Shown here: positions 5,576 to 56,923 of the stretch, in pieces
Layout: every line of letters begins with the position of its first letter
Numbering within the stretch: position 1 is the stretch's first letter
From: a virus
Lineage: Duplodnaviria; Caudoviricetes
Reading direction: 5' to 3' (one strand)
IMG/VR virus record: IMGVR_UViG_3300028805_000057
Coordinates: 64,001-128,000 of that record
Length of the DNA: 64,000 bases
Translations under genes and position numbers: made by a program
Notes under the pieces: generated by a model
Seen by the model: only the letters and a program-made list of their open reading frames with translations
Told to the model about the DNA's origin: nothing
Database searches by the model: none

Positions 5576-6101
5576 TCATGCTTTTCTTGGAGCAAGCACA
5601 CATGCATGGTTAAATGATGATCCTGCAAAACTTAAGAATCGATATTTAAGATGGCTTGCAAAAGAAAGAGGAACACGATTACATGATTTAGCAGCTCGAT
5701 TAATCAAAGAAGGTATTGAACTTCCACAAACAACTAAAACTTTTGATCAATATGTAAATGATGCAATTGGTTTTAGAATGAGGCCTGAACAAAAATTATA
5801 TTATAGTGATAATTGTTTTGGTACTGCGGATGCAATAGCCTTTGATGAAAAAATAAAGTTTCTACGAATTCATGATTTAAAGACTGGTGAGATTCCTGCA
5901 AAGATGGAACAGTTATATATTTATGCTGCTTTATTTTGTTTGGAATATCATCAGAAGCCTGGAGATCTTGGATTCGAATTACGAATCTATCAGAATAATG
6001 GAATTGATATTGCTAATCCTAATGCGGAGATTATATTACCGATTATGGATAAGATTATATCATTCGATAAATTAATTAACAACATTAAAGGAGAATTGTA
6101 A
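5541..6101 (+). CDS. PD-(D/E)XK (Cas4/DUF2800-like) nuclease
   Basis: HAFLGAS, GTRLH, FGTADAI..IHDLKTG..QLYIYA. Confidence 0.8.
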   Translation: MKWNDHFKLPSDHAFLGASTHAWLNDDPAKLKNRYLRWLAKERGTRLHDLAARLIKEGIELPQTTKTFDQYVNDAIGFRMRPEQKLYYSDNCFGTADAIAFDEKIKFLRIHDLKTGEIPAKMEQLYIYAALFCLEYHQKPGDLGFELRIYQNNGIDIANPNAEIILPIMDKIISFDKLINNIKGEL

Positions 6102-9025
6102 TGGATACTAGCGGCATGTCATTTGATGACAAAATCAAAGCTTATATTCGACTCCATGAGACAGAGTCTTCATTACAACATTATGGAACCCCGAGACATT
6201 CTGGTAGATATCCATGGGGTTCTGGTGAAAATCCTTATCAAAGAAATGAGGACTTTCATAGGGTTTACAATGATTTAAAATCTCAGGGATATTCTGATAA
6301 AGAGATGGCTGAGATGTTTGGTTGTTCTATTAATGAACTTAAAGCAAGACGTTCAATGTCTTCACAGCAAGAAAAAGAAAGACAGAGAGTTCGTGTTGTT
6401 AGACTTCATGACCAAAAAGGAATGGGTTGGACAGCTATTGCACAAGAGATGGGATTAAAGAATGAATCTACAGCTCGTTCAATTTACAAGAATGCAAAAG
6501 CTCCTAAGAAACAACTCAATCAGCAAGTTGCAGATAGACTTGAAAAGATTCTTAAGGAAAAAGGCGGATATTTGGATATTTCAACAGGAACAGAACTTGG
6601 ATATCCTTGGTCTGAAGATGCTCCTAAGACTGGTATTAGTTCAAGTCAGATGAGAACAGCATCTATTATGTTAAGAGAAAAAGGATATTCTGTACAGGTA
6701 ATTAACTTACCTCAGGTTACAAATCCAGGTCAGTATACAAATACAACTGTACTTGCTCCTGCTGGAACAACCAAAAAGGATATTTTCAATAATCTTGATA
6801 AACTTCATTCAGTTGAAGATTATACACCAGATGCTGGTAAGACTTGGTGGGTTCCTGAATGGCCTGCTTCAATTGATAGAAAGAGAGTTTATGTAAGATG
6901 GCCTGATGAAGGTGGAGCCGAGAGAGATGGTATGGTTGAAATAAGACCTGGTGTTAAAGACCTTTCTCTTGGAAACTCTACTTATGCACAAGTTAGAATT
7001 GCAGTACATGGATGCGATGTTGCTGGAAAGACAGATGATTACGGAAATCCTGAACCTTCAGATCGTTATATTAAAGGAATGGCTGTATATTCTGATGAGA
7101 TACCCGATGGCTATGATATTGTTGTAAACTGTTCTAAAGCAAGATCAAAAGGTGATGCTAAAGCATTTAAACCAATAAAAGATACAACAGATGTAAATGC
7201 TGTCTTTGGTGCAAGAATTATGACTAACGGACAGGATCATTATATTGGTGATGATGGAAAAGATCATCTTGGTTTAATAAATAAGGTTAATGCAGAAGGA
7301 ACTTGGCAGGATTGGTCTAAAACTTTACCTTCACAGTTCTTAAGCAAACAGCCTAAAGAGCTTATTAAGAAACAGCTTAACTTAACATATGCTGATGCAC
7401 TTGATGAGTTCAATGAAATTAAGAATTATACAAATGATGTTGTTAGACAGAAAGCTCTTGAAGAGTTTGCAAGTCAGTGTGATAGTGCTGCAGTAGATTT
7501 AAAAGCAGCTGCATTACCTAGACAGCAGTCACATGTTATAATTCCAATTAACACATTAAAAGACAATGAAGTATTTGCACCTGGATATGATGATGGTGAG
7601 GAAGTTATATTAATCAGATATCCTCATGAAGGAACATTCCAGATACCTAGACTTATTGTAAATAATAAAAATAAAGAAGGTATTAAATTTATTGGCAAGC
7701 TTGCACCTGATGCAATTGGTATTAATCATAATGTTGCAGACATAATGTCAGGAGCAGACTTTGATGGAGATACTGTTACAGTAATACCTACAAGTAAGAT
7801 TGTCAATATTAAGAATAAACCACCTCTTGAAGGACTTAAAGGCTTTGATGCAAAAGCTGAGTATCCTTACAGACCTGGTATGAAACACTTGGATAAGAAG
7901 CAGACACAGACAGAAATGGGTGTCATCTCAAACCTTATTACTGATATGACAATCAAAGGTGCTACTGATGAAGAACTTACTCGTGCAGTAAAGTATGCAA
8001 ACACAGTTATTGATGCAGATAAACATAATCTTGATTACAAGAGAAGTTATGCAGAGAATGATATTGAAAGTTTAAAAAAGAAATACCAGCAGAAAGCTGA
8101 TTGGAATGGTAAAGGTAAATCATATGGTGGTGCTGGAACTTTACTTTCAAGAGCTAGTTCAGAGCAACATATTTTAGAACAGCAGTTAGCACAAGTAGAT
8201 GAGAAAACTGGAAACTTAAAGAAAGCTTGGAGACCTGATTCTTCTGGAGAATTAATGTATATGCCTACTGGAAGAACAAGAATGGTTCCTGAGAGAAACA
8301 AAGATGGTTCTATAAAACTTGACGAAAATGGCAAGAAAATATACAAGGAAGAACTTGTAAGACAGAAAGTTTCTAAAATGTCACAGGTTGAAGATGCAAG
8401 AGAGCTTATGTCTAATCCCGAGAAAGGTTACATTCAGGAAGAGTTGTATGCTGAGTATGCTAACAACATGAAACACCTTGCTATTCAGGCTCGTAAAGAA
8501 GCTTTCTCTATTAAACCCGAGAAGTGTAACCCTGAAGCAGCTGCAGCATATAAAGATGAAGTTGAATCACTTAATCGTAAACTTGAAAATGCACAGCGTA
8601 ACGCACCTAAGGAAAGACAAGCTCAGGTTCTTGCTAATGTATCTATGAAGGAGCTTAAGGAAGCTAATCCTGGCATGGACAATGAGAAGAAGAAGAAGCT
8701 TGCTCAGCTTGTAATGACTCAGGCTAGAGCTTCTGTTGGTGCTAACAAGAAGGATGTACAGGTAGAAATCACTCCTCGTGAATGGGAAGCCATACAGAAG
8801 AATGCTATCAGCCCTAGTAAGCTGCGCGAGATACTCAAGAATACTGATACCGATAAGGTTAAGAAGCTTGCATCTCCTAAGGTTCCTGCTAATACATTAC
8901 CCAAGACTAAGATTAATCGTATCAAGGCTATGGCTAATAGTGGTTACACCTTAGAGGAAATAGCAAAGGCACTTGATATTTCAAAGAGCAGTGTTTCGAA
9001 GTACATCAAAGGGAAGGAGGATTGA
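6101..9025 (+). CDS. putative single-subunit two-barrel (YonO/RdRP-like) RNA polymerase with HTH domains
   Basis: Catalytic-type GADFDGD motif preceded by IRYPH; HTH-like segments near the N-terminus and at the C-terminus (GYTLEEIAKALDISKSSVSKY); N-terminal SLQHYGTPRHSGRYPWG. Confidence 0.75.
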   Translation: MDTSGMSFDDKIKAYIRLHETESSLQHYGTPRHSGRYPWGSGENPYQRNEDFHRVYNDLKSQGYSDKEMAEMFGCSINELKARRSMSSQQEKERQRVRVVRLHDQKGMGWTAIAQEMGLKNESTARSIYKNAKAPKKQLNQQVADRLEKILKEKGGYLDISTGTELGYPWSEDAPKTGISSSQMRTASIMLREKGYSVQVINLPQVTNPGQYTNTTVLAPAGTTKKDIFNNLDKLHSVEDYTPDAGKTWWVPEWPASIDRKRVYVRWPDEGGAERDGMVEIRPGVKDLSLGNSTYAQVRIAVHGCDVAGKTDDYGNPEPSDRYIKGMAVYSDEIPDGYDIVVNCSKARSKGDAKAFKPIKDTTDVNAVFGARIMTNGQDHYIGDDGKDHLGLINKVNAEGTWQDWSKTLPSQFLSKQPKELIKKQLNLTYADALDEFNEIKNYTNDVVRQKALEEFASQCDSAAVDLKAAALPRQQSHVIIPINTLKDNEVFAPGYDDGEEVILIRYPHEGTFQIPRLIVNNKNKEGIKFIGKLAPDAIGINHNVADIMSGADFDGDTVTVIPTSKIVNIKNKPPLEGLKGFDAKAEYPYRPGMKHLDKKQTQTEMGVISNLITDMTIKGATDEELTRAVKYANTVIDADKHNLDYKRSYAENDIESLKKKYQQKADWNGKGKSYGGAGTLLSRASSEQHILEQQLAQVDEKTGNLKKAWRPDSSGELMYMPTGRTRMVPERNKDGSIKLDENGKKIYKEELVRQKVSKMSQVEDARELMSNPEKGYIQEELYAEYANNMKHLAIQARKEAFSIKPEKCNPEAAAAYKDEVESLNRKLENAQRNAPKERQAQVLANVSMKELKEANPGMDNEKKKKLAQLVMTQARASVGANKKDVQVEITPREWEAIQKNAISPSKLREILKNTDTDKVKKLASPKVPANTLPKTKINRIKAMANSGYTLEEIAKALDISKSSVSKYIKGKED

Positions 9026-10620: not shown

Positions 10621-11976
10621 ATGCCAATGCGTAATAATGAAATGTTATACAATGTATTTGCATACCATAAAAATCATATACAACATTATGGTACTCTTGG
10701 ACAAAAGTGGGGTGTTCGTCATTGGCAAAACTCAGATGGTACTTTTAATGCTGAAGGTAAACTGAGATATTTTGGAACACCTAAGAATAGAAATACAAAT
10801 GGAACTGTTTTTATTAGCGGTTCTTCTAAAACACAATTTGACAATAGTCCATATTATCGAGAAAAATTACCCGATCAGATACAAGAACAAATAAGGAAGT
10901 ATATGAATCAAGGTAAGACAATTCTTGTTGGAGATGCACCTGGTATTGATAGACAAGTACAAGATTTCCTTAAAGAAAATAACTATAAAGATGTAGAAGT
11001 TTATAGTCCAGGAAAAGAAGTAAGGTATAATGCTAATCCTGAATGGAAAACTAATCTTATCGATGTTCCCGAAGCACCACAAGGTTCTAGTGAATGGCTT
11101 GCCGGTAAAGATAAAGCTATGTCTGATCGAGCAGATGAAGGCTTAGCAATTGTCTTAGATGATGGTTCACAAGCCACAAGAAATAATATTTCAAGATTGA
11201 ATGAACAAGATAAAAATTGTGATGTATTTCAATTAAATAAAGATGGTAAAGATGGATGGACTAAATATGGTGACTTTGATGAAAATACATTGAAGAAACT
11301 TAAGAGTGAAGGTTATGCAAGAGATTCATATGAAAACGAAAGTGAAACAGATAATGGTTACTTAGATAATGTAGCTAATTGTATGCAAGAAGACTTCTCA
11401 TATGATGACTCAGATCATAAACTTCAATCTCCATCTCAAACATTTAAATACAAAACTGGTAATTGTCATGATCAGACTTTGTTTGAAAAAGAATTATTTG
11501 AACAAGCTGGATTAGAACCCAAAGCGATCTTTTTAATGGAAGTTGATCCTAATACTGGACAAGGCGGTGTTACACATAGTTTTGTGTTCTTTGAAGATCC
11601 TGACACCAAACATATTACAAAATTTGAAAATGCTTGGCGAGATAAAGCTGGAGTTGAAACATTTTCATCAATTAATCAAATGAAAGATTATATGGAATGG
11701 GAACATAAGAATAAAAACAACTTTGGCAATTCAGAAGTTTATCCTAAAATAGTTTGGGGTAACTTTGAAGGTCAGCCAGGTGACGATTTACAAGACATTG
11801 TTACTAAGAGCCTTTCTTCAAAGATTGGAGCAGATTCTTTTATTAAGGATTTAGGTTTGGGAAAGAAAGTTCTTAGTGCATTAGTCAAAACAAAAGACAA
11901 AGCCAAAGAAACAGCAAAGGAGATTTATAGTAATGGGAAGACGAAATTATTATCAAAATATGGAAGAAACAACTGA
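10621..11976 (+). CDS. leader-tagged protein: HYG module + SLOG/YspA-like domain + transglutaminase-like domain
   Basis: IQHYGTLGQKWG; VFISGS..ILVGDAPGID..KDKAM..DGSQAT (SLOG-like); SP..GNCHDQ..HSF..FENAW (Cys-His-Glu). Confidence 0.65.
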   Translation: MPMRNNEMLYNVFAYHKNHIQHYGTLGQKWGVRHWQNSDGTFNAEGKLRYFGTPKNRNTNGTVFISGSSKTQFDNSPYYREKLPDQIQEQIRKYMNQGKTILVGDAPGIDRQVQDFLKENNYKDVEVYSPGKEVRYNANPEWKTNLIDVPEAPQGSSEWLAGKDKAMSDRADEGLAIVLDDGSQATRNNISRLNEQDKNCDVFQLNKDGKDGWTKYGDFDENTLKKLKSEGYARDSYENESETDNGYLDNVANCMQEDFSYDDSDHKLQSPSQTFKYKTGNCHDQTLFEKELFEQAGLEPKAIFLMEVDPNTGQGGVTHSFVFFEDPDTKHITKFENAWRDKAGVETFSSINQMKDYMEWEHKNKNNFGNSEVYPKIVWGNFEGQPGDDLQDIVTKSLSSKIGADSFIKDLGLGKKVLSALVKTKDKAKETAKEIYSNGKTKLLSKYGRNN

Positions 11977-12208: not shown

Positions 12209-12559
12209 ATGGATGAGAGTATACTAACATCAATTAAAACTCAATTAGCTCTTATGCCAGAAGATGAATCATTTGACAGAGAGTTAATAATATTTATAAA
12301 TGCTGCGTTCGCTAGACTGACACAGCTTGGTGTTGGTCCAATGCCTCATTTCCAAATAGCAGATGATAGTACAACTTGGGATGAATATGTCACAGATATT
12401 ACACAAGAAGAAATGGCAAAAGTATATGTTTATCTCAAAGTAAAAAGATTATTTGACCCACCTGCTAATTCAACACTTGCAAAAGCAATTGATGAAGAAA
12501 TAGCAATGTATGAATACTTATTAAAAGTTGAAGCGGAGGATGATGCAGAATATGAGTGA
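12209..12559 (+). CDS. head-tail adaptor/connector
   Basis: SILTSIK..FD..IN..LTQLGVG..YVYLKVKRLFDPP pattern typical of this phage group. Confidence 0.65.
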   Translation: MDESILTSIKTQLALMPEDESFDRELIIFINAAFARLTQLGVGPMPHFQIADDSTTWDEYVTDITQEEMAKVYVYLKVKRLFDPPANSTLAKAIDEEIAMYEYLLKVEAEDDAEYE

Positions 12560-14276
12560 AGAAATGTTAGCAGTAATGCAAGAAGATGATCAGAATTCGC
12601 TTGAACATTATGGTGTAAAAGGCCAAAAGTGGGGACAGCGAAATTACCAAAATCCTGATGGTACTTATACGGATTTAGGAAAAGAAAGAAGACGAGTAAA
12701 ATTTATCCGAGAAGAGAAGGCTAAGAAAGAAGCTGATGCTAATGCGCATCAAAATGGTATTGAAGAATCAATTGATACAGATGTAAAGATTGGTGGCAAA
12801 GCATATAAGGATATGACTCGTAAAGAGCTCCGTGCTGCAAAGAAACGTGCAAGACATAACGAAGCTGAGCGTAGAGCACAGAGAGAATTTAATAGAGATA
12901 AAAAGCAAGCATTAGAAGATGGTGACATTGCTTTTATTTCAAAAAATATCAGCAAATTTACTAATGAAGAGATTGATGCAGCAATGGTTAGATACAAGAA
13001 AATGCAGGATTTGAAGAATCTTGATAAGGCTAACCAGAAAGATGCAAACCATTACATTGACAAAGCTTTACATTACTTGGATAAAGCAAGTCAAGCAAGT
13101 AAGTCAATCTCTAATATTGCAAATAACTTCAATGATATGTCTAAGAAGGCTGCTGAGAAGAAGAAAGCTTGGATAGATTATGAATATACCAAAGATCCTA
13201 GCTTAAAGCCTCTTACTGAGAAAGAGAAGCTTGATGTTGAGAAACAGAAGACTATTAATAAACAGTCAGAAGAAACTCTTGCTAAGATGAGAGAAGCAAC
13301 ATTACAAGAACAGGAAAAGACCAAGCAAGCGAGAATAGATTCTGCTAATAAACGTTCTTCACAGCAAGCTGAACTTACAGAGATTGAAGAAAAAGCAAGA
13401 AAAGCTCGTATTGATAACGATATGCTTGAACAAGAAGTAAGACAAAAGAAATTCGAAGCTGATCAGAAAGCAGTTGAGAGAGACCAGAAGAAATTTGATC
13501 TTGATATGCAGAAGAAAGCTGTAAAGGATCTTGAGAAAGCAGAAGATGATCTTAAGAAACAACTTAAAGACAGTATCAAACGAGAAATGACTTCTGAAGA
13601 GAAAGAACTCAGAGCAAAGTTAAAAGAAGTTGAAGAAGAGAAGAGAGAAGCTGAACGTAAAGAAAAAGAAGCACGTAGAGCAGAAAAAGAAGCAACTAAT
13701 AGAGCTAATGCTGAATTAAAAGAATATTTACGTAAGCTTGATGAGCAAGAAGAAAATGAAAAAGAACAGAGAAGATTAGAAAAAGAGCAAGCTAAAAAGC
13801 AAAAAGAGATTGAACGTACGATGCAAGAAGAAGCAAAGAATATTGCTAAACAGAATGAAGTTGAAAAACAATTAAATTCTATGACAAATGATGAATATTG
13901 GAATTTAATGTATTCTGGTCAGTCAAAGAATCAATCTAAACTTGGCTCATTCTTCTCTAAGAAAGATAAGGATAAAGTACATAAAGATAATAATCAGGAC
14001 TTTGATCCAGATGATAAAGGTGTTAATATTGTTACAAGAAAATACCTTAATCAGTTAAAAAATTCACCTAAAGATTACTTCAAAGAAAATCAGGTTCAAA
14101 CAGATCAGTGGAAGAAAGATCTGAAGAAGTATGATGCTGATGTAATCGATAAGTGGGTTAAAGATATGAAGAAGAAATATATGAAAGAAAGAAACATGGA
14201 TTCCAAAGCAGCTGAACAAAAAGCTGAGGAGTATGTTGATTCTTGGTTAGATGCCTATGACGAAGGCTTATTCTAA
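12528..14276 (+). CDS. leader-tagged coiled-coil protein (HYG module)
   Basis: SLEHYGVKGQKWGQRNYQNPDG followed by a long K/E-rich coiled coil; true start probably 12540-12552. Confidence 0.7.
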   Translation: MKRRMMQNMSEEMLAVMQEDDQNSLEHYGVKGQKWGQRNYQNPDGTYTDLGKERRRVKFIREEKAKKEADANAHQNGIEESIDTDVKIGGKAYKDMTRKELRAAKKRARHNEAERRAQREFNRDKKQALEDGDIAFISKNISKFTNEEIDAAMVRYKKMQDLKNLDKANQKDANHYIDKALHYLDKASQASKSISNIANNFNDMSKKAAEKKKAWIDYEYTKDPSLKPLTEKEKLDVEKQKTINKQSEETLAKMREATLQEQEKTKQARIDSANKRSSQQAELTEIEEKARKARIDNDMLEQEVRQKKFEADQKAVERDQKKFDLDMQKKAVKDLEKAEDDLKKQLKDSIKREMTSEEKELRAKLKEVEEEKREAERKEKEARRAEKEATNRANAELKEYLRKLDEQEENEKEQRRLEKEQAKKQKEIERTMQEEAKNIAKQNEVEKQLNSMTNDEYWNLMYSGQSKNQSKLGSFFSKKDKDKVHKDNNQDFDPDDKGVNIVTRKYLNQLKNSPKDYFKENQVQTDQWKKDLKKYDADVIDKWVKDMKKKYMKERNMDSKAAEQKAEEYVDSWLDAYDEGLF

Positions 14277-16057: not shown

Positions 16058-17407
16058 ATGATGGATTTCAAGAATAGAATCAAGCATGCCTGGAATGCAT
16101 TTATGAATAAAGATCCCACTCCAACGGTGGATTTAGGTCCAAGTTCATATTATTATCCAGAGCGAACGCAAACAAGAACACAGACTGATCGTTCAATGAT
16201 TACATCAATATTTAATCGTATTGCGATAGATGTATCTACAGTAAGAATATTACAAGCAAAGGTTGACGAATTAGGTAATTATATAGAACCCATGAGAACT
16301 CCTTTGAATGAATGCTTACAAGTTAGTGCAAATATTGATCAGACTGGACGAGCATTAATACAAGATGCAGTTCAGAGAATGTTTAGAGATGGAGTTGTTG
16401 CATTAGCTCCAATTGTATCAGATGATAATCCTAATGAAACTGGTACATTTGATATATACGATATTCGATGTTGTGCAGTAACACAATGGTATCCTCGAAA
16501 AGTCGAAGTAGAAGTTTACAATGACAAGAAAGGAACTATTGAGAAATTATTACTTGACAAAGAGATCGTATGTATTATTCAAAATCCTATGTATGAAATA
16601 ATGAATGCACCAAGTTCATTACTTAATAGGATTTTTAAGAAATTGAGTTTGCTGGATGTAGTCGATAATGAGAATGCATCTAATAAACTAAATATGATTA
16701 TTCAAGTACCTTACTCAACAAGATCTCAGCTTCATCAAGATAATGCTTCGAGACGAAGAAAAGAGATTGAAGACCAATTAATTAATAATCCTTATGGTAT
16801 TGCCTATATGGATGTTAATGAAAAGCTTATTCAATTGAGTAGACCTCTTGAATCAAATCTCCTCGAACATATCAAATATTTGATGGAGACTTATAAGAAT
16901 CAACTTGGTATCACCGATGCAGTTTTAAATGGAACTGCGAATGAAACAGAGATGAACAACTACATCAAGAGAACAGTTGAACCTATTTGTGCTGCTCTCT
17001 GTGATGAAATGAGACGTAAATGGTTAACACAAACTGCCCGTACAAAAGGACAATCCATTACGTATTACTCTGATCCATTCAAGCTTATACCTATTAATGA
17101 AATTGCTAAGTTTGCAGATGTACTTTCTAGAAATGAGATTATGACATCTAATGAACTTAGACAGAAGATGGGTATGCCTCCGTCAGATGATCCAAGGGCT
17201 GATGAGTTAAATAATGCTAATATGCCTGACTACGATCAAGAAAATCAAAATGAGATGATTCCTATGGAAGAAGAAACTAATCCTGGACAAGAAGAAGTTT
17301 ACTTCGATCCTAATGCTCAGAATCAGGAAACTGAAGAAGAGCAAGGTGAAGAGGAAGTTTATTATGATCCTGAAAGTAGCACTAAGACATTTAGCTTGTT
17401 TAAATAA
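16058..17407 (+). CDS. portal protein
   Basis: Between terL and protease; IFNRIAID, MTSNELRQKMGMPP HK97-like portal signature. Confidence 0.88.
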   Translation: MMDFKNRIKHAWNAFMNKDPTPTVDLGPSSYYYPERTQTRTQTDRSMITSIFNRIAIDVSTVRILQAKVDELGNYIEPMRTPLNECLQVSANIDQTGRALIQDAVQRMFRDGVVALAPIVSDDNPNETGTFDIYDIRCCAVTQWYPRKVEVEVYNDKKGTIEKLLLDKEIVCIIQNPMYEIMNAPSSLLNRIFKKLSLLDVVDNENASNKLNMIIQVPYSTRSQLHQDNASRRRKEIEDQLINNPYGIAYMDVNEKLIQLSRPLESNLLEHIKYLMETYKNQLGITDAVLNGTANETEMNNYIKRTVEPICAALCDEMRRKWLTQTARTKGQSITYYSDPFKLIPINEIAKFADVLSRNEIMTSNELRQKMGMPPSDDPRADELNNANMPDYDQENQNEMIPMEEETNPGQEEVYFDPNAQNQETEEEQGEEEVYYDPESSTKTFSLFK

Positions 17408-17430: not shown

Positions 17431-19842
17431 ATGAATCAAGACTACGATTTTGCCGGTTGGGCAACCAAAAATGACATTCTTTGTGAAGACGGTCGTGTTA
17501 TTAAGAAGGATGCATTTAAGGATTGCGATGGTAAACAGGTACCGTTAGTCTTCAATCATGATCACAAAGATGTTCAGAACTTTTTAGGACATTGTGTATT
17601 AGAAAATCGTGATGAGGGTGTTTACTGCTATGGCTATATAGACAAAGACACACCTGCAGGTCAGCAGGCTCTGAGTCTTATTAAACATGGAAGTTTGAAT
17701 TCTCTCTCGATTTATGCTAATAAACTTAAACAGATTGGTCATGATGTAATTCACGGTCTTATTCGTGAAGTTTCACTTGTACTTGCTGGTGCTAATTCAG
17801 GCGCTGTAATAGATACAGTATTAGCTCATGCAGAAGATGCAAGTGATATTGAAGGCGATGCTATGATAGTTTACGCTGGTGAAGAAAATCCTATTGAGCA
17901 TAGTTTTGATGATTCCGAGCACGAAGAAGAAATAGAACATTCAGCTGATGAGTCAGAAGATGATGAAGCAGTATTTGATTCTATGACAGATGCTCAGAAG
18001 AGACTTATGCTCAAAATGATGGGTATGGCTGCAGAAGATGCAGCAAATTCTACAGTTTCCCATTCTTCAAAAGATGCTGAGGAAGATGATGAAGATGACG
18101 ATGACGAAGACGATGAGTCAGAGTTAGAACATTCTAAAGAATCTTCTGAAGAGAATGAAGATAAGGATAAAAAGAAAGCTTGTTCACACAGCTTCTTACT
18201 TTTTGGTAATGATGATGAATTGAGTCATGCTTCAAAAGAAGAAGACGAAAAAGAAGAAACCAAAAATGAGGAAGATGATGAAGACAATGAAAACCTCGAA
18301 GATGCTGAAGAATCCGATGTAGAAGAGGATGACAAAGACGACGAGGAAGAAACAAATGATTCAAACAAAAATAATGAGAAGGAGAAAAAAGAAATGACTC
18401 ACAATTTATTTGAAAATCAGGCACAGAACGATGTTCTTATCCACAGCGCTGAAATGTGCAGCGAGATGATGGCAGATGCAGTTAAGTTTGGTTCACTTAA
18501 GGATTCCGTAATGGCTCATAGTGCAGATTACGGTATTGATAACATTGATTACCTTTTCCCGAATGCAAAGAATTACACCACTACTCCTGAGTTCATTAAG
18601 AGAAGAACTGAGTGGGTTAATGAAGTTCTTTCAGGCGTTCGTCAGTCACCTTTCAGCCGTGTTAAGACTATCTTCGCTGACATCACCGAGGATGAGGCTC
18701 GTGCTAAGGGTTACATCAAGGGTAACCGTAAGGCAGAGGAAGTATTCACTCTGTTAAAGAGAGAGACCACTCCTACTACCGTTTACAAGAAGCAGAGAAT
18801 TGATCGTGATGATATTATCGATATCACTGACTTCTCAGTTATCGAGTATATCAAGGCAGAGATGAGAATTATGTACGATGAGGAATGTGCACGTGCAATC
18901 CTTGTTGGTGATGGACGTAATCCTCTTAGCCCTGACAAGATCAAGGAAGCTAACATCAGACCTATCTGGACAGATGATGATCTGTTTACAGTTAAGAGAG
19001 CAATCGCTGTTACTACAGCTACAACTGATCAGGCTCGTGCTAAGGCATTTATCAAGAACCTTGTTAAGTCAAGAAAGCTTTACAGAGGTTCAGGTAATCC
19101 TACACTCTTCATCGCTGAGGACCTTCTTGCTGATATGCTCCTTATCGAGGATGAGATGGGACGTCTTATCTATGATGACATCAACAAGCTTAAGAACACT
19201 CTTCGTGTTAACAAGATTGTTGAAGTTCCGATCTTTGATGGTCTTATGAGAATAGACAATGGCGATACCAAGTATCTTGCAGCTATTCTTGTTAATCTTA
19301 ATGACTACAGAACTGGCCGTGATCGTGGTGGCGAGCTCAGCTTCTTCGATGATTTTGATATCGACTTCAACCAGCAGAAGTATCTTATGGAGTCAAGATT
19401 CTCAGGTGCTCTTGTTCTGCCTTATTCAGCAGTTGCATATGAGTTCGTTTACAATCTTACTCTTGATATCCAGGCAGAGGACAGCACTACTGTTGTTCTT
19501 GGCAAGCAGGTATCTGAGCTTCAGGAGAATGTATTCGTTAATGAGAACTCTGTACAGGGTATCCTTAACTATGTAACTGGTTATACTCAGTTCTCAGATT
19601 CACCTGAGCTTCAGGAAGGTCACTATCTTGCACTTAAGTTCGAGGCATCTGATGGAGCAACTGTTACTATCCAGACTATCGGTGGCGTAGATGATGCAAG
19701 AGTCGTTACTCTTGATCAGGATATGAATTCAGTTACTTATGTTAAGTCTACAAAGGAGAAGCTCAGAGTTACTTGCTCACTTAACGGCGACGTTATCACA
19801 AGAACTATCACCTTCAGTGGCTTAAAGCTTCTTGCTGAGTAA
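17431..19842 (+). CDS. prohead protease-scaffold-major capsid fusion with C-terminal extra domain
   Basis: N-terminal HK97-type protease (PLVFNHDH, SLSI, EVSLVLAGAN), acidic linker, capsid fold (FFDDFDIDFNQQKYLMESRFSGAL), C-terminal beta-rich extension. Confidence 0.9.
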   Translation: MNQDYDFAGWATKNDILCEDGRVIKKDAFKDCDGKQVPLVFNHDHKDVQNFLGHCVLENRDEGVYCYGYIDKDTPAGQQALSLIKHGSLNSLSIYANKLKQIGHDVIHGLIREVSLVLAGANSGAVIDTVLAHAEDASDIEGDAMIVYAGEENPIEHSFDDSEHEEEIEHSADESEDDEAVFDSMTDAQKRLMLKMMGMAAEDAANSTVSHSSKDAEEDDEDDDDEDDESELEHSKESSEENEDKDKKKACSHSFLLFGNDDELSHASKEEDEKEETKNEEDDEDNENLEDAEESDVEEDDKDDEEETNDSNKNNEKEKKEMTHNLFENQAQNDVLIHSAEMCSEMMADAVKFGSLKDSVMAHSADYGIDNIDYLFPNAKNYTTTPEFIKRRTEWVNEVLSGVRQSPFSRVKTIFADITEDEARAKGYIKGNRKAEEVFTLLKRETTPTTVYKKQRIDRDDIIDITDFSVIEYIKAEMRIMYDEECARAILVGDGRNPLSPDKIKEANIRPIWTDDDLFTVKRAIAVTTATTDQARAKAFIKNLVKSRKLYRGSGNPTLFIAEDLLADMLLIEDEMGRLIYDDINKLKNTLRVNKIVEVPIFDGLMRIDNGDTKYLAAILVNLNDYRTGRDRGGELSFFDDFDIDFNQQKYLMESRFSGALVLPYSAVAYEFVYNLTLDIQAEDSTTVVLGKQVSELQENVFVNENSVQGILNYVTGYTQFSDSPELQEGHYLALKFEASDGATVTIQTIGGVDDARVVTLDQDMNSVTYVKSTKEKLRVTCSLNGDVITRTITFSGLKLLAE

Positions 19843-48157: not shown

Positions 48158-48300
48158 AAAATATTATGAACATAACCATGTAGAAAATCGCATGGGATTT
48201 ATTCATAAATATTTACAAACAAATATTATGAACAGAACCATACCAAAAAACTGCATGGGATTTATTCATAAATATTTACAAACAAATATTATGAACAGAA
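48158..48300. repeat. 62/63-bp tandem duplication spanning a start codon
   Basis: AAATATTATGAACA three times (ATGs at 48166, 48228, 48291); GCATGGGATTTATTCATAAATATTTACAAAC twice. Confidence 0.85.
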
Positions 48301-49859
48301 TAATGTTTTATAATAAACTAGATAAGTTTAAGAAAAACCTAGAAGAAAAAAATAGTTTAGAACATAGATTTAGTGATCACGATGGTGTTGATAATAAACT
48401 TGATACTAATGGAAATAGACCCAGAGAAGTTCATACGAATGAATATAAGGGCACTTTTAATAATACTAGACGTGGTAATTTATCTAGAGCAACTAAACCT
48501 AAGTCTAATTATGGACAGAGTTATTATACAAAGATTGATAAATATTATCCTGATGGTACTGCTAGATACTTCTATTCAAAAGATGAATATGAAGCATATC
48601 AAAATGGGCAGGTGAAAGGTAATAGTGCTAAACATCTTGATCAAATGATGAAAGAAACTGCTGAGAGAAAAGTTATCGAAGATAAAAAGAAACAACAAGA
48701 AGAAATCTATAGAAAGAATAAAGAAGCAGATGAAGCAAGAGTTAAAGCAGAACAAGAAAAATATGCTAAATTACGTGCTGAAAATAACAAACAAAAACCT
48801 AAGACAAGAGAAGAAGCTGAAAAAGAAGCTATAAAAAGAGAACAAGAAAGAATAAGAAAAGCTGATATTGAAGCTAACAAGAAACCTGAAACTAAGGCAC
48901 TTGAACAAGCTGAAGATGAATTAGTAAAACTTAAAGGAAAACAGAATCTTGCTAAGAATCGTGGTTTAGATGACAAAAACAATAAGAAAGAATATGATAA
49001 GTTGACTAAAGAAATCGAAGCAAAAGAAAAAGAAATTGCTTCAATAAGAAAGAAGATGGCTGATGAAACATTAGCGAATAGAGATAAAGAAATTAAAGAA
49101 GCTACAAAAAGAGAGCAAGAAAGAATAGAAAAAGAAGCTACTGAGAAACTTGAAACTTGGAAAGAAAATATTAAAGATAATATCAATGATTATGCTCTTG
49201 AAGTATATGATAATATTAAGAGATGCGCAAATGATAGAGATGTTTCTTTTAATGTAGATAATCCATTTGTAGATTTATTTAAAGAAGCTCTTAAGAAATA
49301 TGATCCAGACTTTGATGGAGATATCGCAGCATACGTGAGACCTTATCCTGGACAAAGTATTGCAGGTATACTTGGCAGTGAATTACTTAAAGATGATAAA
49401 CATACCAAGATTGCTAAGAAAGTTCTTAATGAATTAGAAGATAATTTAGATAAAACTATTGATAAATATACTATTAATGATGAACAATATGATGATTTCT
49501 TAGATCATCTTAAAGGAAAACAGGAAAAGAATAAAACTGCAGCTATTGATAAAGAAATGGATAATGCAAGAAAATCACTTGAAGCAATGTATAATGGTGA
49601 TGAAAACAGTATTAATCTTGATAAATCTCTTAAGAAAGTACTTGAAACTAAACTTAAAGAAATTGACCCTGAATATGAAAAAGGTAATCTTTATAAATAT
49701 GTAAGACCTTATATTCTTGGTAAATGGTGGAAAGATGATGAATCATATGCTAAAGTTACGGAAGCTCTTAATGAACTTGAAAAAGAATTAAGATCTGCAA
49801 ATAAACATGATGATGCATATGGTGATTTTGTTGAAAAAGTTTCAAAAATACTTGCATGA
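48291..49859 (+). CDS. leader-tagged coiled-coil protein (YYxKID..RYFY module)
   Basis: MNRIMFYNKLDKFK leader, SLEH, YYTKIDKYYPDGTARYFYSKDEYEAY; internal repeat (LK..DP....G....YVRPY). Confidence 0.7.
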   Translation: MNRIMFYNKLDKFKKNLEEKNSLEHRFSDHDGVDNKLDTNGNRPREVHTNEYKGTFNNTRRGNLSRATKPKSNYGQSYYTKIDKYYPDGTARYFYSKDEYEAYQNGQVKGNSAKHLDQMMKETAERKVIEDKKKQQEEIYRKNKEADEARVKAEQEKYAKLRAENNKQKPKTREEAEKEAIKREQERIRKADIEANKKPETKALEQAEDELVKLKGKQNLAKNRGLDDKNNKKEYDKLTKEIEAKEKEIASIRKKMADETLANRDKEIKEATKREQERIEKEATEKLETWKENIKDNINDYALEVYDNIKRCANDRDVSFNVDNPFVDLFKEALKKYDPDFDGDIAAYVRPYPGQSIAGILGSELLKDDKHTKIAKKVLNELEDNLDKTIDKYTINDEQYDDFLDHLKGKQEKNKTAAIDKEMDNARKSLEAMYNGDENSINLDKSLKKVLETKLKEIDPEYEKGNLYKYVRPYILGKWWKDDESYAKVTEALNELEKELRSANKHDDAYGDFVEKVSKILA

Positions 49860-49875
49860 AAGGAGAGTGATTAAG

Positions 49876-50145
49876 ATGGATACATCAAGTATTGCAGTAA
49901 TTATTGTGGCATTAATCGGCGCAATAGCAACAATAACATCAAATATTGTAATGAACAACAAACAGTCAGCAGCAATGGATGCTAAGTTGGATAAGCAGCA
50001 AGGAATTATTGAAGAACGACTAAGTAATTTAAAAGAATCAGTCGATAAACATAATAACTTTGCTCAGAAAATCCCAGCAATCGAAGCAAATATTGAAAAC
50101 ATTGAAAAACGAATCGACAAATTAGAAAGTAAATTAATAAAGTAA
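49876..50145 (+). CDS. membrane-anchored coiled-coil protein (holin/XhlA-like)
   Basis: IAVIIVALIGAIATI TM segment, VDKHNNF; AGGAG RBS (track 49807). Confidence 0.6.
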   Translation: MDTSSIAVIIVALIGAIATITSNIVMNNKQSAAMDAKLDKQQGIIEERLSNLKESVDKHNNFAQKIPAIEANIENIEKRIDKLESKLIK

Positions 50146-50158
50146 GGAAGGAGTCAAA

Positions 50159-50311: not shown

Positions 50312-50325
50312 GGGGTTAAATAATC

Positions 50326-51225: not shown

Positions 51226-52143
51226 ATGTTACAAAAAGAATTCTATACAAAATTAGAAATGGCAAGACAAAAGCAGGACTCCTTACAACATCATGGTATT
51301 AAAGGTCAGAAGTGGGGTGTAAGGCGTTTCCAGTATATGGATGGTTCTTACACCCAAGCTGGCCGTGAAAGATATGGTTATGGTCCTGCAAGACAACCAA
51401 AACAAGAAGATGATAAAGTTGGTGTTATGATACCTATTCCTTCAGCTGCAGTTCCACCAATATTGGCTGCTGGTGCTGCTATTTTAGGAGTAGAATTAGG
51501 ATTATCTACAATAGGTGATGCTATACATAATGCTAAAGTTTCGAAAGATATTAAGAATTGGGAGGCAAATCGAGCAAAAGAAGAAACTGATCCTAAGACT
51601 GGTCTTAAACTTAAATCTGATCCAAATGCTTCTGTTAAAGATGATATGAAAATGATTAACAGAGAATATGGATATGGAATGTTTGCTAAGGCGATTTGGG
51701 ATATTGATTCAAAGAAATCAATGGGTCATACAGAAAATTGTATGCTTTGTACAACTGCTTTGGATCTTAAGAGAAGAGGATATGACGTTAAAGCCGGTTC
51801 AAGTAAAGATGGATACTATGCTAAAGATGTTGCTAATTGGTATAAAGAAAAGAAACAACCTACTATGGGCAAATTTAATAGCATTATAGAACAGCTTAAT
51901 AAACAACCTGAAGGTTCTTATGGAAACTTTATGGTATACTGGAAAGAAGGCGGTGGGCATTCTATGTTTTACAGGATTGAAGGTGGTAAACCTGTAATAT
52001 ATGATGCTCAGTCTAACAAGAATTATACAATATATGAAATTTCAAATCATATAAATAATTCAATTCCAGGACATTGTTTCTTAAGAACAGATAACTTAAC
52101 ACCGGATTACGATTATTTAAAGAAGAATAATATTATAGCCTGA
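51226..52143 (+). CDS. leader-tagged papain-fold (Tox-PL-like) effector 1
   Basis: SLQHHGIKGQKWGVRR, hydrophobic segment, NCMLC..RGYDVKA..GGHS..IYDAQ. Confidence 0.72.
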   Translation: MLQKEFYTKLEMARQKQDSLQHHGIKGQKWGVRRFQYMDGSYTQAGRERYGYGPARQPKQEDDKVGVMIPIPSAAVPPILAAGAAILGVELGLSTIGDAIHNAKVSKDIKNWEANRAKEETDPKTGLKLKSDPNASVKDDMKMINREYGYGMFAKAIWDIDSKKSMGHTENCMLCTTALDLKRRGYDVKAGSSKDGYYAKDVANWYKEKKQPTMGKFNSIIEQLNKQPEGSYGNFMVYWKEGGGHSMFYRIEGGKPVIYDAQSNKNYTIYEISNHINNSIPGHCFLRTDNLTPDYDYLKKNNIIA

Positions 52144-52269
52144 ACGAAGTAAAAAGCTCAGCCTGTGATTGATTTTGAGCAGGGTGGCATAGAACGAATG
52201 TTTAGGATAAAGAATTTGGTTTTCAGAATGAAAAGCAATTATTATTGCATAGGAGGGTTCAAAATAAGT

Positions 52270-53871
52270 ATGAATAGATATGAATTCTATGGAAATATTA
52301 ATACATACAGAAAAAATCAATCAAATAAAGAAAATGAATTAACTCACTACGGAACTCTCGGTCAAAAATGGGGTGTTCGTAAGTGGCAGAACTATGATGG
52401 TACTTTTAATGAGGCTGGTAAGGAAAGATATTTTGGAACTAAGAAAGCTAAAAATGAAGAAAAAATAAATTCAAAATATCAAAATAAAGATGGTTCTTTA
52501 ACACAAGAATATATAAATAAAATTCAAAAATTAACTAATGAAGGTAAATTTGATGAAATTGAAAAACTTAAAAAACAAATAGATTTTGATAAAGTACAAG
52601 AATGGTCTAAGAAAACAAATCCGAATTTATATAAAATGCCAGATTTTAGTGATCCTTCAGAATATGAAGGAGATTTTGAATCATATGTTGAAGATAATTG
52701 GGAAACTGCAGCTAAGAAAAGAGGGTTCGATCTTGATGATATTTTAACAGATGAACAATATGAAATAATTAATCAGGATATGAAGGATTATTTTAATAGT
52801 CATGAAGAAAAAATAGGTTCTGTCTTTAATAAAAATTTAAGTGAAGAAAAGAAAGATAAATTACGAGAAAAATTATATTCACGTGATAGTGAAATGCTTA
52901 CTATAGATCAATTATATGATGAAGATGAACAGAAATATTTATTAAATAAAAAAGTTTCTAAAAAAGTTAATAAATTAGTTGATTGTTTGACTAAAGGTGA
53001 TTTTGATGAATATAATAAAATATTAGAAGATGTTGACCCAGAACATTTACAAACAGTAAAGAATGCTGCACAAGATTTAGCCAATACAAAACAATTAAGA
53101 AATGTCGATACATCTAGATTAACTGAAGTTTCAAAAGATATTTTTGGAAATGATAATATATTAGGTGTTCAAAGTATTCTTGCAATGACAAATAGTGATG
53201 ACATTAATGCACATTCATCAAATAGAGTGTATCCAGTAGATATACGACAGTCAATTATAGATAATAGTACTCTATTAAAAACTGCTATATTAGAATATGA
53301 AAGAGGCTATAAAGATGGATACGAAAGAGATATACAAATTGCTTCTGGCGGTGATGAACGCCGTGCAAAATATATGAAACAGTTTGTTGATGATGTCGAA
53401 GCTGTTAAAGAATACTCTAAAGATTCTAAAGAAATTAATGATGAATTACGTAAGTTAAAAACAAAAGAATCTTGTGACGATAAAGCTTTTATTAATTATC
53501 ATTATACAGAAGCTTTATATGATAATATGCGTAAATATATAAATGATGATTTTCCTGTAAGACTTAAAAAAGGAACAAATGATGCTAAGAAAATGGTTAA
53601 TAATCTTTATAAAAACTTTGAAAAATATTCAAAAGAATTTAAAGAAGATTTATATTATCAATTATTAGATTACTATGATGATGAATATATTTCAAAATCT
53701 GAATTTATGAAAGAAATAGGAAAAATCAATGCTGTTGAAATGTATGGTAATGGTAATATAACTTTTACTTATACAGTACCAGGTGAAATGGGATATGATA
53801 TGGTTAATATAAATGGCAATATAAACGATAATGGGAAACTTACAATAGATGATGCTGATTTTATTGATTAA
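52270..53871 (+). CDS. leader-tagged protein, paralog of 55409..56923
   Basis: MNRYEFYGNINTYR..ELTHYGTLGQKWG; AGGAGG RBS before ATG 52270 (track 52165). Confidence 0.72.
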   Translation: MNRYEFYGNINTYRKNQSNKENELTHYGTLGQKWGVRKWQNYDGTFNEAGKERYFGTKKAKNEEKINSKYQNKDGSLTQEYINKIQKLTNEGKFDEIEKLKKQIDFDKVQEWSKKTNPNLYKMPDFSDPSEYEGDFESYVEDNWETAAKKRGFDLDDILTDEQYEIINQDMKDYFNSHEEKIGSVFNKNLSEEKKDKLREKLYSRDSEMLTIDQLYDEDEQKYLLNKKVSKKVNKLVDCLTKGDFDEYNKILEDVDPEHLQTVKNAAQDLANTKQLRNVDTSRLTEVSKDIFGNDNILGVQSILAMTNSDDINAHSSNRVYPVDIRQSIIDNSTLLKTAILEYERGYKDGYERDIQIASGGDERRAKYMKQFVDDVEAVKEYSKDSKEINDELRKLKTKESCDDKAFINYHYTEALYDNMRKYINDDFPVRLKKGTNDAKKMVNNLYKNFEKYSKEFKEDLYYQLLDYYDDEYISKSEFMKEIGKINAVEMYGNGNITFTYTVPGEMGYDMVNINGNINDNGKLTIDDADFID

Positions 53872-53907
53872 AATTTTTTAAAAGAAAAATCAAAATGGAG
53901 GAATATT

Positions 53908-54177
53908 ATGGGCAATGACTTAGTAGGTCAGGCTATTGAAGCTATGAAAAAATATAGACCTGAAAAAACAGTAATAAAGATTTGGAATAAAGGTAAGTCA
54001 TGTCTTATACTTGCTGCAAAGAATCCTAAAGAATACCAAATGGAGATGGATCCTTATTATATATTTGCTGAGGGTGCTATCTCCGGTATCTCTTATTTGG
54101 ATAATGCTGTCAAGTTAAAAAAGATAATGAAACCAGAGTATATAGCATACACTCGAAAGGAGCTTGGAAATGAATAG
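53908..54177 (+). CDS. small protein, putative immunity/partner 1
   Basis: Paralog of 55131..55391 (KKYxP..AK..DP(Y/F)Y..G..G); no leader. Confidence 0.6.
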   Translation: MGNDLVGQAIEAMKKYRPEKTVIKIWNKGKSCLILAAKNPKEYQMEMDPYYIFAEGAISGISYLDNAVKLKKIMKPEYIAYTRKELGNE

Positions 54178-54231
54178 CTATACTATACAAAAAGCGTATA
54201 GCAGATCCATTCATTATGAAAGGAGTAATAA

Positions 54232-55119
54232 ATGAATAGAATAGAGTTTTATTCAAGTTTAAATAAATATAAAGATATTCAAGAGAAATCTGATAATGAA
54301 TTAAAACACTATGGCATAAAAGACCAGAAATGGGGTGTAAGACGTTGGCAGAATCCTGATGGTACATTTAATGCTGAAGGTAAGTTAAGATATTTCGGTG
54401 CTCAGCCTAAAGAAGGTAGTGTAACTGCACTTGCTGGTGTATTTGCTCTTTGGGGTGCAGAATTAGCTTTGTTAGTTGGCGGACCAGTGACTGCATATGC
54501 AATACAAGATGCTAAAACTACAAATAAAATAAAGAAATTTGAAGCAAATTTAGCAACAGAAAAAACAGATCCTGAAAGTGGATATAAATTAAAGAATGAA
54601 AAAATGTCTAAAAATACTACAAAAGAAGACATGTCATATGTAAATATGGAACAACAATATGCTGGTATGAAACAAAAGAATAGAGATGCTAAAGAAGGAA
54701 CTAGTATGAATTGTTCTTTATGTACTACTGCAATGGTTCTTAGACAAAAAGGATATGATGTACGTGCTGGTAAGACTAAAGAAGGTACATCATATCAAGA
54801 ACAAGAAAAACGTTATAAAGGTGGCAAGTTTACATTAGGAACATTCAAAGATATTATAAAAGAACTCGAAAAACAACCTGAAGGTTCTTACGGACATTTC
54901 TCTGTTGAATGGAGAGAAGCTTATGGTGGAGCTCATAGTATGTTTTATAAGATTGAGAACGGCAAACCTGTAATATATGATTGTCAAGTTAATCAAGTTG
55001 TTAAACCGAAAAATTTATATAAAAATGCTTCGCCTCTTGAAGATAAGACTAAGTTTATGAGATGTGATAATCTCGAAGTTAATTGGGATTATATAAAAGA
55101 GAATAAACTTGTACACTAG
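54232..55119 (+). CDS. leader-tagged papain-fold (Tox-PL-like) effector 2
   Basis: ELKHYGIKDQKWGVRR, hydrophobic segment, NCSLC..KGYDVRA..GAHS..IYDCQ. Confidence 0.72.
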   Translation: MNRIEFYSSLNKYKDIQEKSDNELKHYGIKDQKWGVRRWQNPDGTFNAEGKLRYFGAQPKEGSVTALAGVFALWGAELALLVGGPVTAYAIQDAKTTNKIKKFEANLATEKTDPESGYKLKNEKMSKNTTKEDMSYVNMEQQYAGMKQKNRDAKEGTSMNCSLCTTAMVLRQKGYDVRAGKTKEGTSYQEQEKRYKGGKFTLGTFKDIIKELEKQPEGSYGHFSVEWREAYGGAHSMFYKIENGKPVIYDCQVNQVVKPKNLYKNASPLEDKTKFMRCDNLEVNWDYIKENKLVH

Positions 55120-55130
55120 GAGGAAATAAT

Positions 55131-55391
55131 ATGAATATAATAGATGAAATTAAAGATGCTTTCAAAAAATATAATCCTGATTTATATGTAATAGCAATAT
55201 TTATTGCAGAAAAAGATTTATATTTTGTAGTTGCAAAACATACTCCCGATAAAACAACAGTTGAAGAAGATCCTTTCTATATGTATGGAAATGGAAAAGT
55301 TACTGGTGTTACAATAACAGATTCTGAAGAAAGAATGAATAATGCATTTGAAATTATGCAAGCAAAGAATCGTATTTATGAAATTGATTGA
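55131..55391 (+). CDS. small protein, putative immunity/partner 2
   Basis: Directly after effector 2; paralog of 53908..54177. Confidence 0.6.
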   Translation: MNIIDEIKDAFKKYNPDLYVIAIFIAEKDLYFVVAKHTPDKTTVEEDPFYMYGNGKVTGVTITDSEERMNNAFEIMQAKNRIYEID

Positions 55392-55408
55392 AAGGAGGGA
55401 GTCTTCAA

Positions 55409-56923
55409 ATGAATAAAATAGAATTCTTAGCAAATATAGATAAATATAAAGGCGAAGATCATTCTACTTTCCTTCAGCATTACGGAATCTTAGGACAAAA
55501 ATGGGGACAGCGTAGATGGCAAAATCCTGATGGCACTTTTAATGAAGAAGGTAAGCAAAGATATTTTGGTCAGAAATCAAACAATATAAGTTCTGAAGAA
55601 AAGATTGGTGGTTATACTGCAGATCATTTTCACAAAAATATTTATTTAAAGACTGACAAGAATACTCTTAAGAAAATTAAGAAGTATCCTGATATATATG
55701 ATACAGAAGGTTTAACTGATGATGAAATATTAAAAGCTGTTAGACGTGTTCCTAAGATACCTAATGCTAGAGCATATGGTAGAGAAATTAGAGAAGAACT
55801 TTATAATACTCAATTGAATAAGACAAGATCTAAGTATTACGAGACAAATACTAAAGATATTCTTGAAGCTGAAGATGTTGAAGAGCAAAAGATTGGTGGT
55901 TGGACAGATCATGGTAAAAAGATTGATGAATTATATCCTAATGATAATGGACATTTATATAGTGATAATCTTTACACATCTGATGAACAAGAATATTTTA
56001 TGAATGAAAAAAATGCTAATAGAATAAATAAAATGGCTAAGTATGCTATGGAAGGTAATACTAAAAAGTATGATAAATTAATGGATAAAATTGATGACAA
56101 ATATAAAGATACAGTAAGAAGAGCAGTTCTTGATATTGAAGATGGTATAGATAATAAAGCTAATAATAAAAAAGGCAGAGAACTTTCTAAAGAAATAGGA
56201 CTTGGAGAAGTTGATTTAAATGCAATATTAAGAAATCGATATAAAGATGATGAACGAATGTATTCAATTAAAGATCGTGATATGATTCGTAATAATATGG
56301 ATACTATAATGACAGCAGTTAAGAAACTTAAAAATCAAGATATTAATGGATATTATGATGAAGTTGAAAAGATAGCTCGTACTGGTGAAGATAAAGATAC
56401 TATTGATAGATTTGTAGATGACTATATTAGTATTAAATCATATATTGATGAAGGTAAAAAACTAGATAAAGAATTAAAAAATATGAAAAATATTCAAAGT
56501 AAATGTAAATATCCAATTGATTATGATACAGACGCAAGAGACTTTATGTTCTCAGAATATACAAAAGACTATAGATCAATTCAAGAAAAGATGCAAGATC
56601 CTAAAATACATAGAGACGGACAAAAAGTTATTAATAATCTTAATAAAAACTTTGATAAATATGTTGATCAATTTAAAGATAAAGTTGTTGAAAATCTTTA
56701 TGAAGATTATAAAGATTGGCATGCTGATGATGACAAGATACTATCTAAACAGCAATTTAAGAATGCCATTGGTAAAGTAAATAGTGGTAGTATTGATGAT
56801 ACTGGATATTTACAATTATATCTTGAAGATAATGGTTTATTCTATGGACATGTATTTACAAGTCTTGGAGTTATAGATGATAACGGTAATCTTAAAGTTG
56901 AAGATGTATTCTTAGAAGGTTAA
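55409..56923 (+). CDS. leader-tagged protein with DUF2262-like C-terminus
   Basis: MNKIEFLANIDKYK..FLQHYGILGQKWG; ends DNGLFYGHVF..LEG; start 55409 (track 55388). Confidence 0.7.
   Translation: MNKIEFLANIDKYKGEDHSTFLQHYGILGQKWGQRRWQNPDGTFNEEGKQRYFGQKSNNISSEEKIGGYTADHFHKNIYLKTDKNTLKKIKKYPDIYDTEGLTDDEILKAVRRVPKIPNARAYGREIREELYNTQLNKTRSKYYETNTKDILEAEDVEEQKIGGWTDHGKKIDELYPNDNGHLYSDNLYTSDEQEYFMNEKNANRINKMAKYAMEGNTKKYDKLMDKIDDKYKDTVRRAVLDIEDGIDNKANNKKGRELSKEIGLGEVDLNAILRNRYKDDERMYSIKDRDMIRNNMDTIMTAVKKLKNQDINGYYDEVEKIARTGEDKDTIDRFVDDYISIKSYIDEGKKLDKELKNMKNIQSKCKYPIDYDTDARDFMFSEYTKDYRSIQEKMQDPKIHRDGQKVINNLNKNFDKYVDQFKDKVVENLYEDYKDWHADDDKILSKQQFKNAIGKVNSGSIDDTGYLQLYLEDNGLFYGHVFTSLGVIDDNGNLKVEDVFLEG

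Follow-up and report, generated by a model that had tools for sequence, protein, structure and literature searches.

Our analysis revealed a single gene for head protease, scaffold-like spacer and major capsid protein in the stretch of gut-phage DNA studied here, a window of 64,000 nucleotides that comprises bases 64001-128000 of the 147,894-bp virus record IMGVR_UViG_3300028805_000057. The open reading frame (ORF) in question, 17431-19842, has 803 amino acids (aa); it begins with a prohead protease (aa 1-133) and ends with a HK97-fold capsid protein (aa 364-803), the two being linked by an acidic spacer (aa 134-363). It is flanked by a portal gene (16058-17407) and by head-tail and tail genes, and lies, like the motifs of the tagged genes described below, on the plus strand of the window. 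We consider it likely that the fusion is a head-assembly polyprotein in which the fused protease cuts after the histidine of a repeated hydrophobic-x-His motif, and that cargo proteins encoded in the same window are processed or held in the same way.

The motif was first noticed in an initial annotation of the DNA, which placed nine copies of it between nucleotides 17815 and 18530 in an acidic setting. Translation of 17431-19839 recovered all nine copies at nucleotides 17821-18522, i.e. aa 131-364 of the fusion protein, and the spacer indeed consists of Asp and Glu to 37.8% and has an isoelectric point of 4.05. Expressed as [LIVMCA]-x-H-[SA], the motifs read LAHA, IEHS, IEHS, VSHS, LEHS, CSHS, LSHA, LIHS and MAHS and occupy aa 131-134, 155-158, 168-171, 209-212, 232-235, 251-254, 264-267, 336-339 and 361-364, respectively. 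Site 1 (LAH/A, the slash marking the proposed cut; H133; 17821..17832) forms the boundary between protease and spacer and site 9 (MAH/S, H363; 18511..18522) directly precedes the start of the conserved capsid core. Between them lie site 2 (IEH/S, H157; 17893..17904), sites 3-7 (H170, H211, H234, H253 and H266; 17932..18231) and site 8 (LIH/S, H338; 18436..18447). Cuts after every one of these histidines would, by calculation, give fragments of 13-72 aa.

Nine of the 11 histidines in aa 126-366 stand in the motif context, for which the binomial probability (at least nine of 11) is 9e-11. The comparison with the remaining proteome that had been proposed as a check gave a strong enrichment: the other 251 ORFs of the genome contain 25 motifs in 44,117 aa (0.57 per 1000 aa) as compared to a density of approximately 38 per 1000 aa in the spacer, which is about 67-fold higher. 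The spacer is of low complexity, and one might therefore ask whether the motif count is a product of composition or chance. Shuffling of aa 126-366 with composition kept yielded 0.54 motifs on average and five at most, none of 200,000 shuffles attained nine, and the pattern is moreover conserved across the protein family, so that we reject this explanation as having next to no probability. The capsid part from aa 367 to 803 holds one histidine in 437 aa; an avoidance of histidine in the mature capsid was considered as additional support and then dropped, being strong in the window protein but modest in the family as a whole (1.24% versus 1.75% in the proteome).

The family of the fusion protein is large, with 2005 matches at E ≤ 0.001 and 726 at E ≤ 1e-30 when one representative is counted per 50%-identity cluster. 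Among the matches listed (47-100% identity), 119 of 120 homologues carried between two and ten strict motifs, the exception being a partial sequence of 452 aa. For a survey of sequence context we took 85 divergent representatives of the 50%-identity clusters, which together have 667 histidines between the end of the protease and the capsid core. Two residues before these histidines L (40%), I (17%), V (12%) or M (10%) was found in 79% of cases, and the residue directly after was S (27%), A (25%), G (10%) or N (8%) in 70%, while other positions were near the spacer background. H133 and H363 are invariant, the latter in one alignment and at least 90% conserved in another, and H157 is nearly so (at least 90%). 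Both invariant histidines are found at domain boundaries: H133 comes immediately after the strand that closes the protease domain, and among relatives the equivalent of H363 lies 0 to approximately 19 aa before the conserved capsid core motif. The confidence of the structure models drops or is only moderate around both residues. Site 8 is variable, the number and spacing of sites, including sites 3-7, differ freely among relatives, and the surrounding spacer varies in sequence and length. Such variability fits cut sites and not structural residues. Judged from these alignments, the sites have the typical features of protease cut sites, namely a short conserved context within freely varying sequence, a position at domain boundaries and a variable copy number.

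The same pattern occurs in cultured phages, namely Lactococcus phage 1706, Faecalibacterium phage FP_oengus, Rhodococcus phage ReqiPepy6, Arthrobacter phage Circum, Gordonia phage Nadmeg and Streptomyces phage FidgetOrca, and a histidine equivalent to H363 was found in each of these six. This distribution bears on the possibility that the sites are cut by a host protease or by another phage protease instead of the fused domain. Since the motif is kept across phages of Lactococcus, Faecalibacterium, Streptomyces and Arthrobacter and always together with this protease domain, we regard such an external protease as highly improbable. It could further be proposed that the spacer histidines act as sensors of pH or metal that steer assembly or the exit of the scaffold, without any proteolysis at these positions. 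Histidine is the usual residue for such sensing, and the spacer is scaffold-like, acidic and equipped with a conserved helix. However, a sensor would not need a hydrophobic residue at position -2 and a small residue after each histidine, and its action would explain neither the invariant histidine with which the protease domain ends nor the same triplet in the leaders of unrelated proteins (see below). A protease that is fused in cis also needs a release site, and the protein has no repeated motif besides this one. We therefore hold a sensor function to be very unlikely and return to cleavage after the motif histidines as the preferred explanation.

The assignment of the protease domain (17431..17829), which ends at LAH/A (H133), rests on homologues, PHROG matches and fold, since a Pfam search of the window fusion protein itself gave nothing at E ≤ 0.01. 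In homologues of 51-87% identity, PF04586 (Peptidase_S78) was found in 16 of 31 and PF05065 (Phage_capsid) in 15 of 31. The fusion protein matches PHROG 3270, labelled 'head maturation protease', with an E value of 1e-194, and also PHROG 80 and PHROG 3244 with the same label. An AlphaFold2 (AF2) model of aa 1-175 showed a predicted local distance difference test score (pLDDT) above 95 for aa 10-130, which falls off past approximately aa 130, in line with a domain that ends near the first site. Foldseek searches with this model returned herpesvirus assemblins (2pbk with an E value of 1.3e-4; 4v07, 2wpo and 1at3) and gp21 of phage T4 (5jbl) at a probability of 1.00, so that model and search together give aa 1-175 the assemblin/prohead-protease fold. 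When positions were compared by sequence across 50 divergent family members, H43 and S93 were unchanged and H45 and H108 unchanged or nearly so, and S93 is the putative nucleophile.

The spacer (aa 134-363, 230 aa; 17830..18519) carries the eight further hydrophobic-x-His-(S/A) sites. Between His sites it also contains a conserved amphipathic helix module at aa ~178-206 (window 17960-18050), of which some relatives have two copies and which looks like a scaffold repeat unit. The major capsid protein (aa 364-803, 49.8 kDa; 18520..19842) shows the HK97 fold with an additional beta-rich domain at the C-terminus (aa ~697-802). An AF2 model of aa 322-803 (mean pLDDT 83.9) reproduced this fold with the added C-terminal beta domain and matched in Foldseek the capsids of phi29 (gp8), gene transfer agent (GTA), HK97, T5 and actinophages at E values of 1e-10 to 1e-14. 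Together with PF05065 in the homologues and a match to the major-head-protein family PHROG 7080, which is weaker than that to PHROG 3270, this identifies the part as a HK97-fold major capsid protein. PHROG 31690 covers the C-terminal domain (aa 697-802). Neither a sequence search of the PDB with the fusion protein nor one with a 31-sequence profile returned a relative, and no solved capsid thus supplies the mature N-terminus.

Several known systems combine some of these features. Known prohead proteases have Glu (T4, phiKZ-like phages), Lys (HK97), Phe (80alpha) or Ala (herpesviruses) at P1. T4 gp21 cuts after L/I-x-E, and herpesvirus assemblin cuts V/L-x-A before S. The initial annotation had cited gp21 as an example of a HK97-type protease; gp21 shares the fold but belongs to MEROPS family S77 and not to that of HK97 (S78). 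With its substrates, the internal proteins IPI-III and Alt, it resembles the window system as proposed here in having the same fold, a short recurring motif in which P3 is hydrophobic and P1 is a single specific residue, a scaffold that is cut to small peptides, and cargo leaders. It differs in that P1 is Glu and protease, scaffold and capsid protein are encoded by separate genes, whereas the window has the proposed P1 His and one ORF. Herpesvirus assemblin (MEROPS S21, UL26/UL26.5) provides the best structural matches and is likewise fused to scaffold; as proposed for the window protease, it releases itself at the end of its domain and recognizes a hydrophobic-x-P1 sequence, here followed by Ser. 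In contrast, its P1 is Ala and it is fused to scaffold only, while the window protease has His as proposed P1 and is fused to the capsid protein too. HK97 gp4 and the gp5 delta domain (MEROPS S78, PF04586) are the third comparison: close homologues of the window protein fall in the same family, and the N-terminal part of the HK97 precursor acts as scaffold and is cleaved off. HK97 cuts gp5 after Lys103, encodes protease and capsid protein in separate genes, and has no His motif.

By analogy with T4 gp21 and herpesvirus assemblin, together with the family comparison, P1 is most probably the histidine and the cut would fall directly after it. To our knowledge few endopeptidases of any kind have histidine at P1. 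A His specificity would be undescribed among prohead proteases and the cargo code would be T4-like, a reading that the comparison of sequences supports well. In a literature search no work turned up that deals with a His-specific prohead protease, DUF7211 (the cargo tag treated below), a link between DUF7211 and the His motif, or processing of the protease-capsid fusion. The fusion as such has been remarked on in actinobacteriophages by Klyczek et al. 2017, without cut sites, specificity or internal start (PMC5513430). The 'major capsid and protease fusion protein' of actinobacteriophages (Circum gp12, clusters AM/AU), 1706 gp10, FP_oengus gp71 and ReqiPepy6 gp25 belong to the same family as the window protein, to which they are 38-52% identical in the protease and capsid parts, and show the same His motif pattern and neighbouring tagged genes. 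Compared to these proteins the window fusion has a longer and more acidic spacer, more sites (nine) and the extra C-terminal domain.

A further feature of the gene is a start signal within the spacer. The sequence AAGGAG at 18379-18384 forms an internal ribosome-binding site, separated by 9 nt from an ATG at 18394 (M322; the whole element at 18379..18396). The window shares this arrangement with 14 relatives from Firmicutes and Actinobacteria phages, with a Shine-Dalgarno-like sequence (GGAG, GAAGGA or GAGGAG) 8-13 nt upstream of the homologous codon. The homologous start codon is ATG, with GTG in FP_oengus and TTG in phage 1706, and the residues that follow match x-x-N-x-F-D/E in the window and its relatives. 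The M-T-H followed by N at aa 322-325 had been considered as a tenth conserved His site and was discarded, as relatives have R, K, Q or E in place of the histidine. What is conserved is thus the start codon and its ribosome-binding site and not a His site, given that the residue two after M322 varies (H, R, K, Q, E). Initiation at this codon would probably give a protease-less capsid precursor of aa 322-803 (54.5 kDa) with the last two sites only, and this form is probably the main capsid building block. With an own start of the capsid part at codon 322, most capsid precursor may carry sites 8 and 9 and none of the others. A nested in-frame product without protease is also known from UL26/UL26.5 of herpesviruses and from C/Nu3 of phage lambda, like the arrangement proposed here.

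In the mechanism that we propose, the codon-322 start would supply most capsid subunits as protease-less precursor and the full-length form of 90.5 kDa would bring in a minority of protease. Within the assembled prohead the protease would recognize a hydrophobic residue at P3, any residue at P2 and His at P1, with a small residue at P1', and cut after the His. A first cut after H133 would free the protease, other cuts would turn the spacer into peptides of 13-72 aa that are able to leave the shell, and the last cut after H363 would produce the mature 49.8-kDa capsid protein with S364 at its N-terminus. At least seven further proteins with [LI]-x-His leaders, among them a RNA polymerase and two proteins with toxin domains, would be taken up into the head, where the same protease would either trim or hold them.

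These seven proteins agree with the initial annotation, which had placed the same motif in front of cargo modules in other parts of the window. Each has [LI]-x-H approximately 20-60 residues from its start, followed by Y/H-G and a tag that corresponds to DUF7211 (PF23847), a Pfam family of no assigned function. The tagged ORFs start at 6101 (the RNA polymerase), 10621, 12528, 51226, 52165, 54232 and 55388. The phage single-chain RNA polymerase (ORF 6101-9025) has L-Q-H at aa 25-27 (6173..6181) and then a divergent tag, ORF 10621-11976 has I-Q-H at aa 20-22 (10678..10686) and ORF 12528-14276 has L-E-H at aa 25-27 (12600..12608), each of the latter two followed by the DUF7211 tag. In the four remaining genes L-x-H, Y/H-G and DUF7211 fall within 51283..55480. 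A PF23847 search of the whole genome gave six matches, all of them in the window and four above the cut-off of 27 bits (e.g. 28.9 bits for ORF 12528 and 29.4 bits for ORF 51226). As in T4, where the capsid targeting sequences of internal proteins are short leaders removed by gp21 (PMC7411985), a short N-terminal leader that ends in the presumed motif of the protease is thus found on unrelated proteins. Given the shared [LI]-x-His, the tagged proteins are probably packaged in the head and handled by the same protease.

Wider sampling of the tag gave a consistent picture. We sought the DUF7211 core in the loci collected and in the whole genome without demanding a histidine, and among 78 distinct tags His was found at position -2 in 78 and L or I at position -4 likewise in 78; the median distance of the tag from the first Met was 19 aa (n=78). 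A search of IMG/VR with a four-sequence alignment gave 25 tag loci; the fusion gene was present in all 16 that include the head module, the remaining nine being fragments. One IMG/VR contig of 81.9 kb with a completeness rating of 100% appeared to be a counter-example with tags and no fusion, yet it also lacks a portal homologue and was set aside as an uninformative fragment. In the phage collection the tag was found in no phage group that lacks the fusion, and in all six cultured relatives tagged genes adjoin the terminase or portal gene. In the record of Lactococcus phage 1706 the tagged ORF7 is labelled 'structural protein', which is a hint that such proteins are packaged. Approximately 10% of the tags lie inside a gene instead of near its start, and these genes have a tandem or polyprotein-like layout. 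Two internal tags are found in Arthrobacter phage Circum gp7 (L004:2784-3791) and one at about residue 357 of Gordonia phage Nadmeg gp16 (L005:1086-2798), and internal tags suggest polyproteins that are released by cutting.

The tags are also where a different role of the motif has to be weighed, namely that it is a docking or recognition element for the protease or the shell interior, with the cut placed elsewhere or with some copies, such as the DUF7211 tags, only tethering cargo. The residue after His differs between the two sets of sites: the spacer has S, A, G or N and the tags have Tyr, His or Phe followed by an invariant Gly. With such a bulky residue in place, the tag His may serve for docking or holding rather than as a cut site. 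The conserved basic segment past the tag His also resembles a functional module of its own, and in this segment, which lies past the presumed cut, the DUF7211 tag is unlike the T4 leaders. On the other hand, proteases of the same fold are generally known to use a hydrophobic P3 and a specific P1, the invariant histidines fall exactly at both domain boundaries, and the internal tags in tandem or polyprotein-like genes make sense if their products are released by cutting. Docking without cleavage at the histidine therefore appears to us unlikely, with cleavage after His as the explanation we prefer.

A number of further observations weigh, together with the bulky residue of the tags, against a His-specific protease that serves both capsid and cargo. 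The position of the cut relative to the His is set by analogy alone, and a literature search gave no biochemical or proteomic data on any member of the fusion family. The co-occurrence of tag and fusion may partly reflect inheritance of one head module. The folded protease domain contains three conserved histidines in similar context, and some relatives have such histidines in the region of the capsid N-arm, from which it follows that context or accessibility beyond the four residues must matter. Site 9 is located in a predicted helix of moderate confidence (pLDDT 64-72), which possibly limits access. The central proposal of the initial annotation, a His-specific prohead protease that links head maturation to cargo processing, was strengthened by family conservation, the boundary sites and the motif in the cargo tags; it is left qualified in the placement of the cut and in the tags, where the residue after His is not small.

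Some genes of the window give additional indications of the range of possible cargo and substrates. The 974-aa protein encoded at 6101-9025, with its L-Q-H leader, matches PHROG 4291 (labelled RNA-dependent RNA polymerase) with E = 0 and is a candidate for a virion-packaged RNA polymerase. Two tagged proteins (51226-52143 and 54232-55119) contain the papain-fold glutamine-deamidase toxin domain PF15644, and ORF 55388 contains DUF2262. Similar leaders that end in S-L-x-H, without the full tag, were observed in ORFs 48192 and 50326 and in a 50-aa ORF at 50159 (window 48192-51207) and may be degenerate or variant cargo leaders. The 797-aa ORF 56937-59330, a possible cargo polyprotein without a family match, holds five strict motifs (aa 30, 89, 466, 495 and 520) and is the only further place in the genome where they cluster. 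At residues 7-10 of the portal protein, in its N-terminus (window 16058-16100), I-K-H is followed by A. In related portals hydrophobic-x-His-(S/A) is found 9-14 residues from the start in four of seven and is lacking in three of seven, and the motif near the start of several portals means that some portals may be trimmed as well.

We think it somewhat more probable than the opposite that one large lineage of phages on Actinobacteria and Firmicutes, with hundreds of isolated members, uses a His-specific head protease and that hydrophobic-x-His constitutes a readable maturation code in these phages. If this is true, sequence alone would reveal the mature N-terminus of the capsid protein and the complete set of proteins that enter the head and are injected, including the virion RNA polymerase and the proteins with toxin domains, and the nested internal start would set the ratio of protease to capsid protein. 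Hundreds of sequenced phages could then be re-annotated, and 'hypothetical' cargo such as phage RNA polymerase and toxin-like enzymes would be flagged. Many members of the family are in culture, among them Lactococcus phage 1706, Faecalibacterium phage FP_oengus and many SEA-PHAGES isolates. A sequence-specific protease of 133 aa might also be a useful laboratory tool, and a His-specific member would represent a new specificity in an old protease fold.

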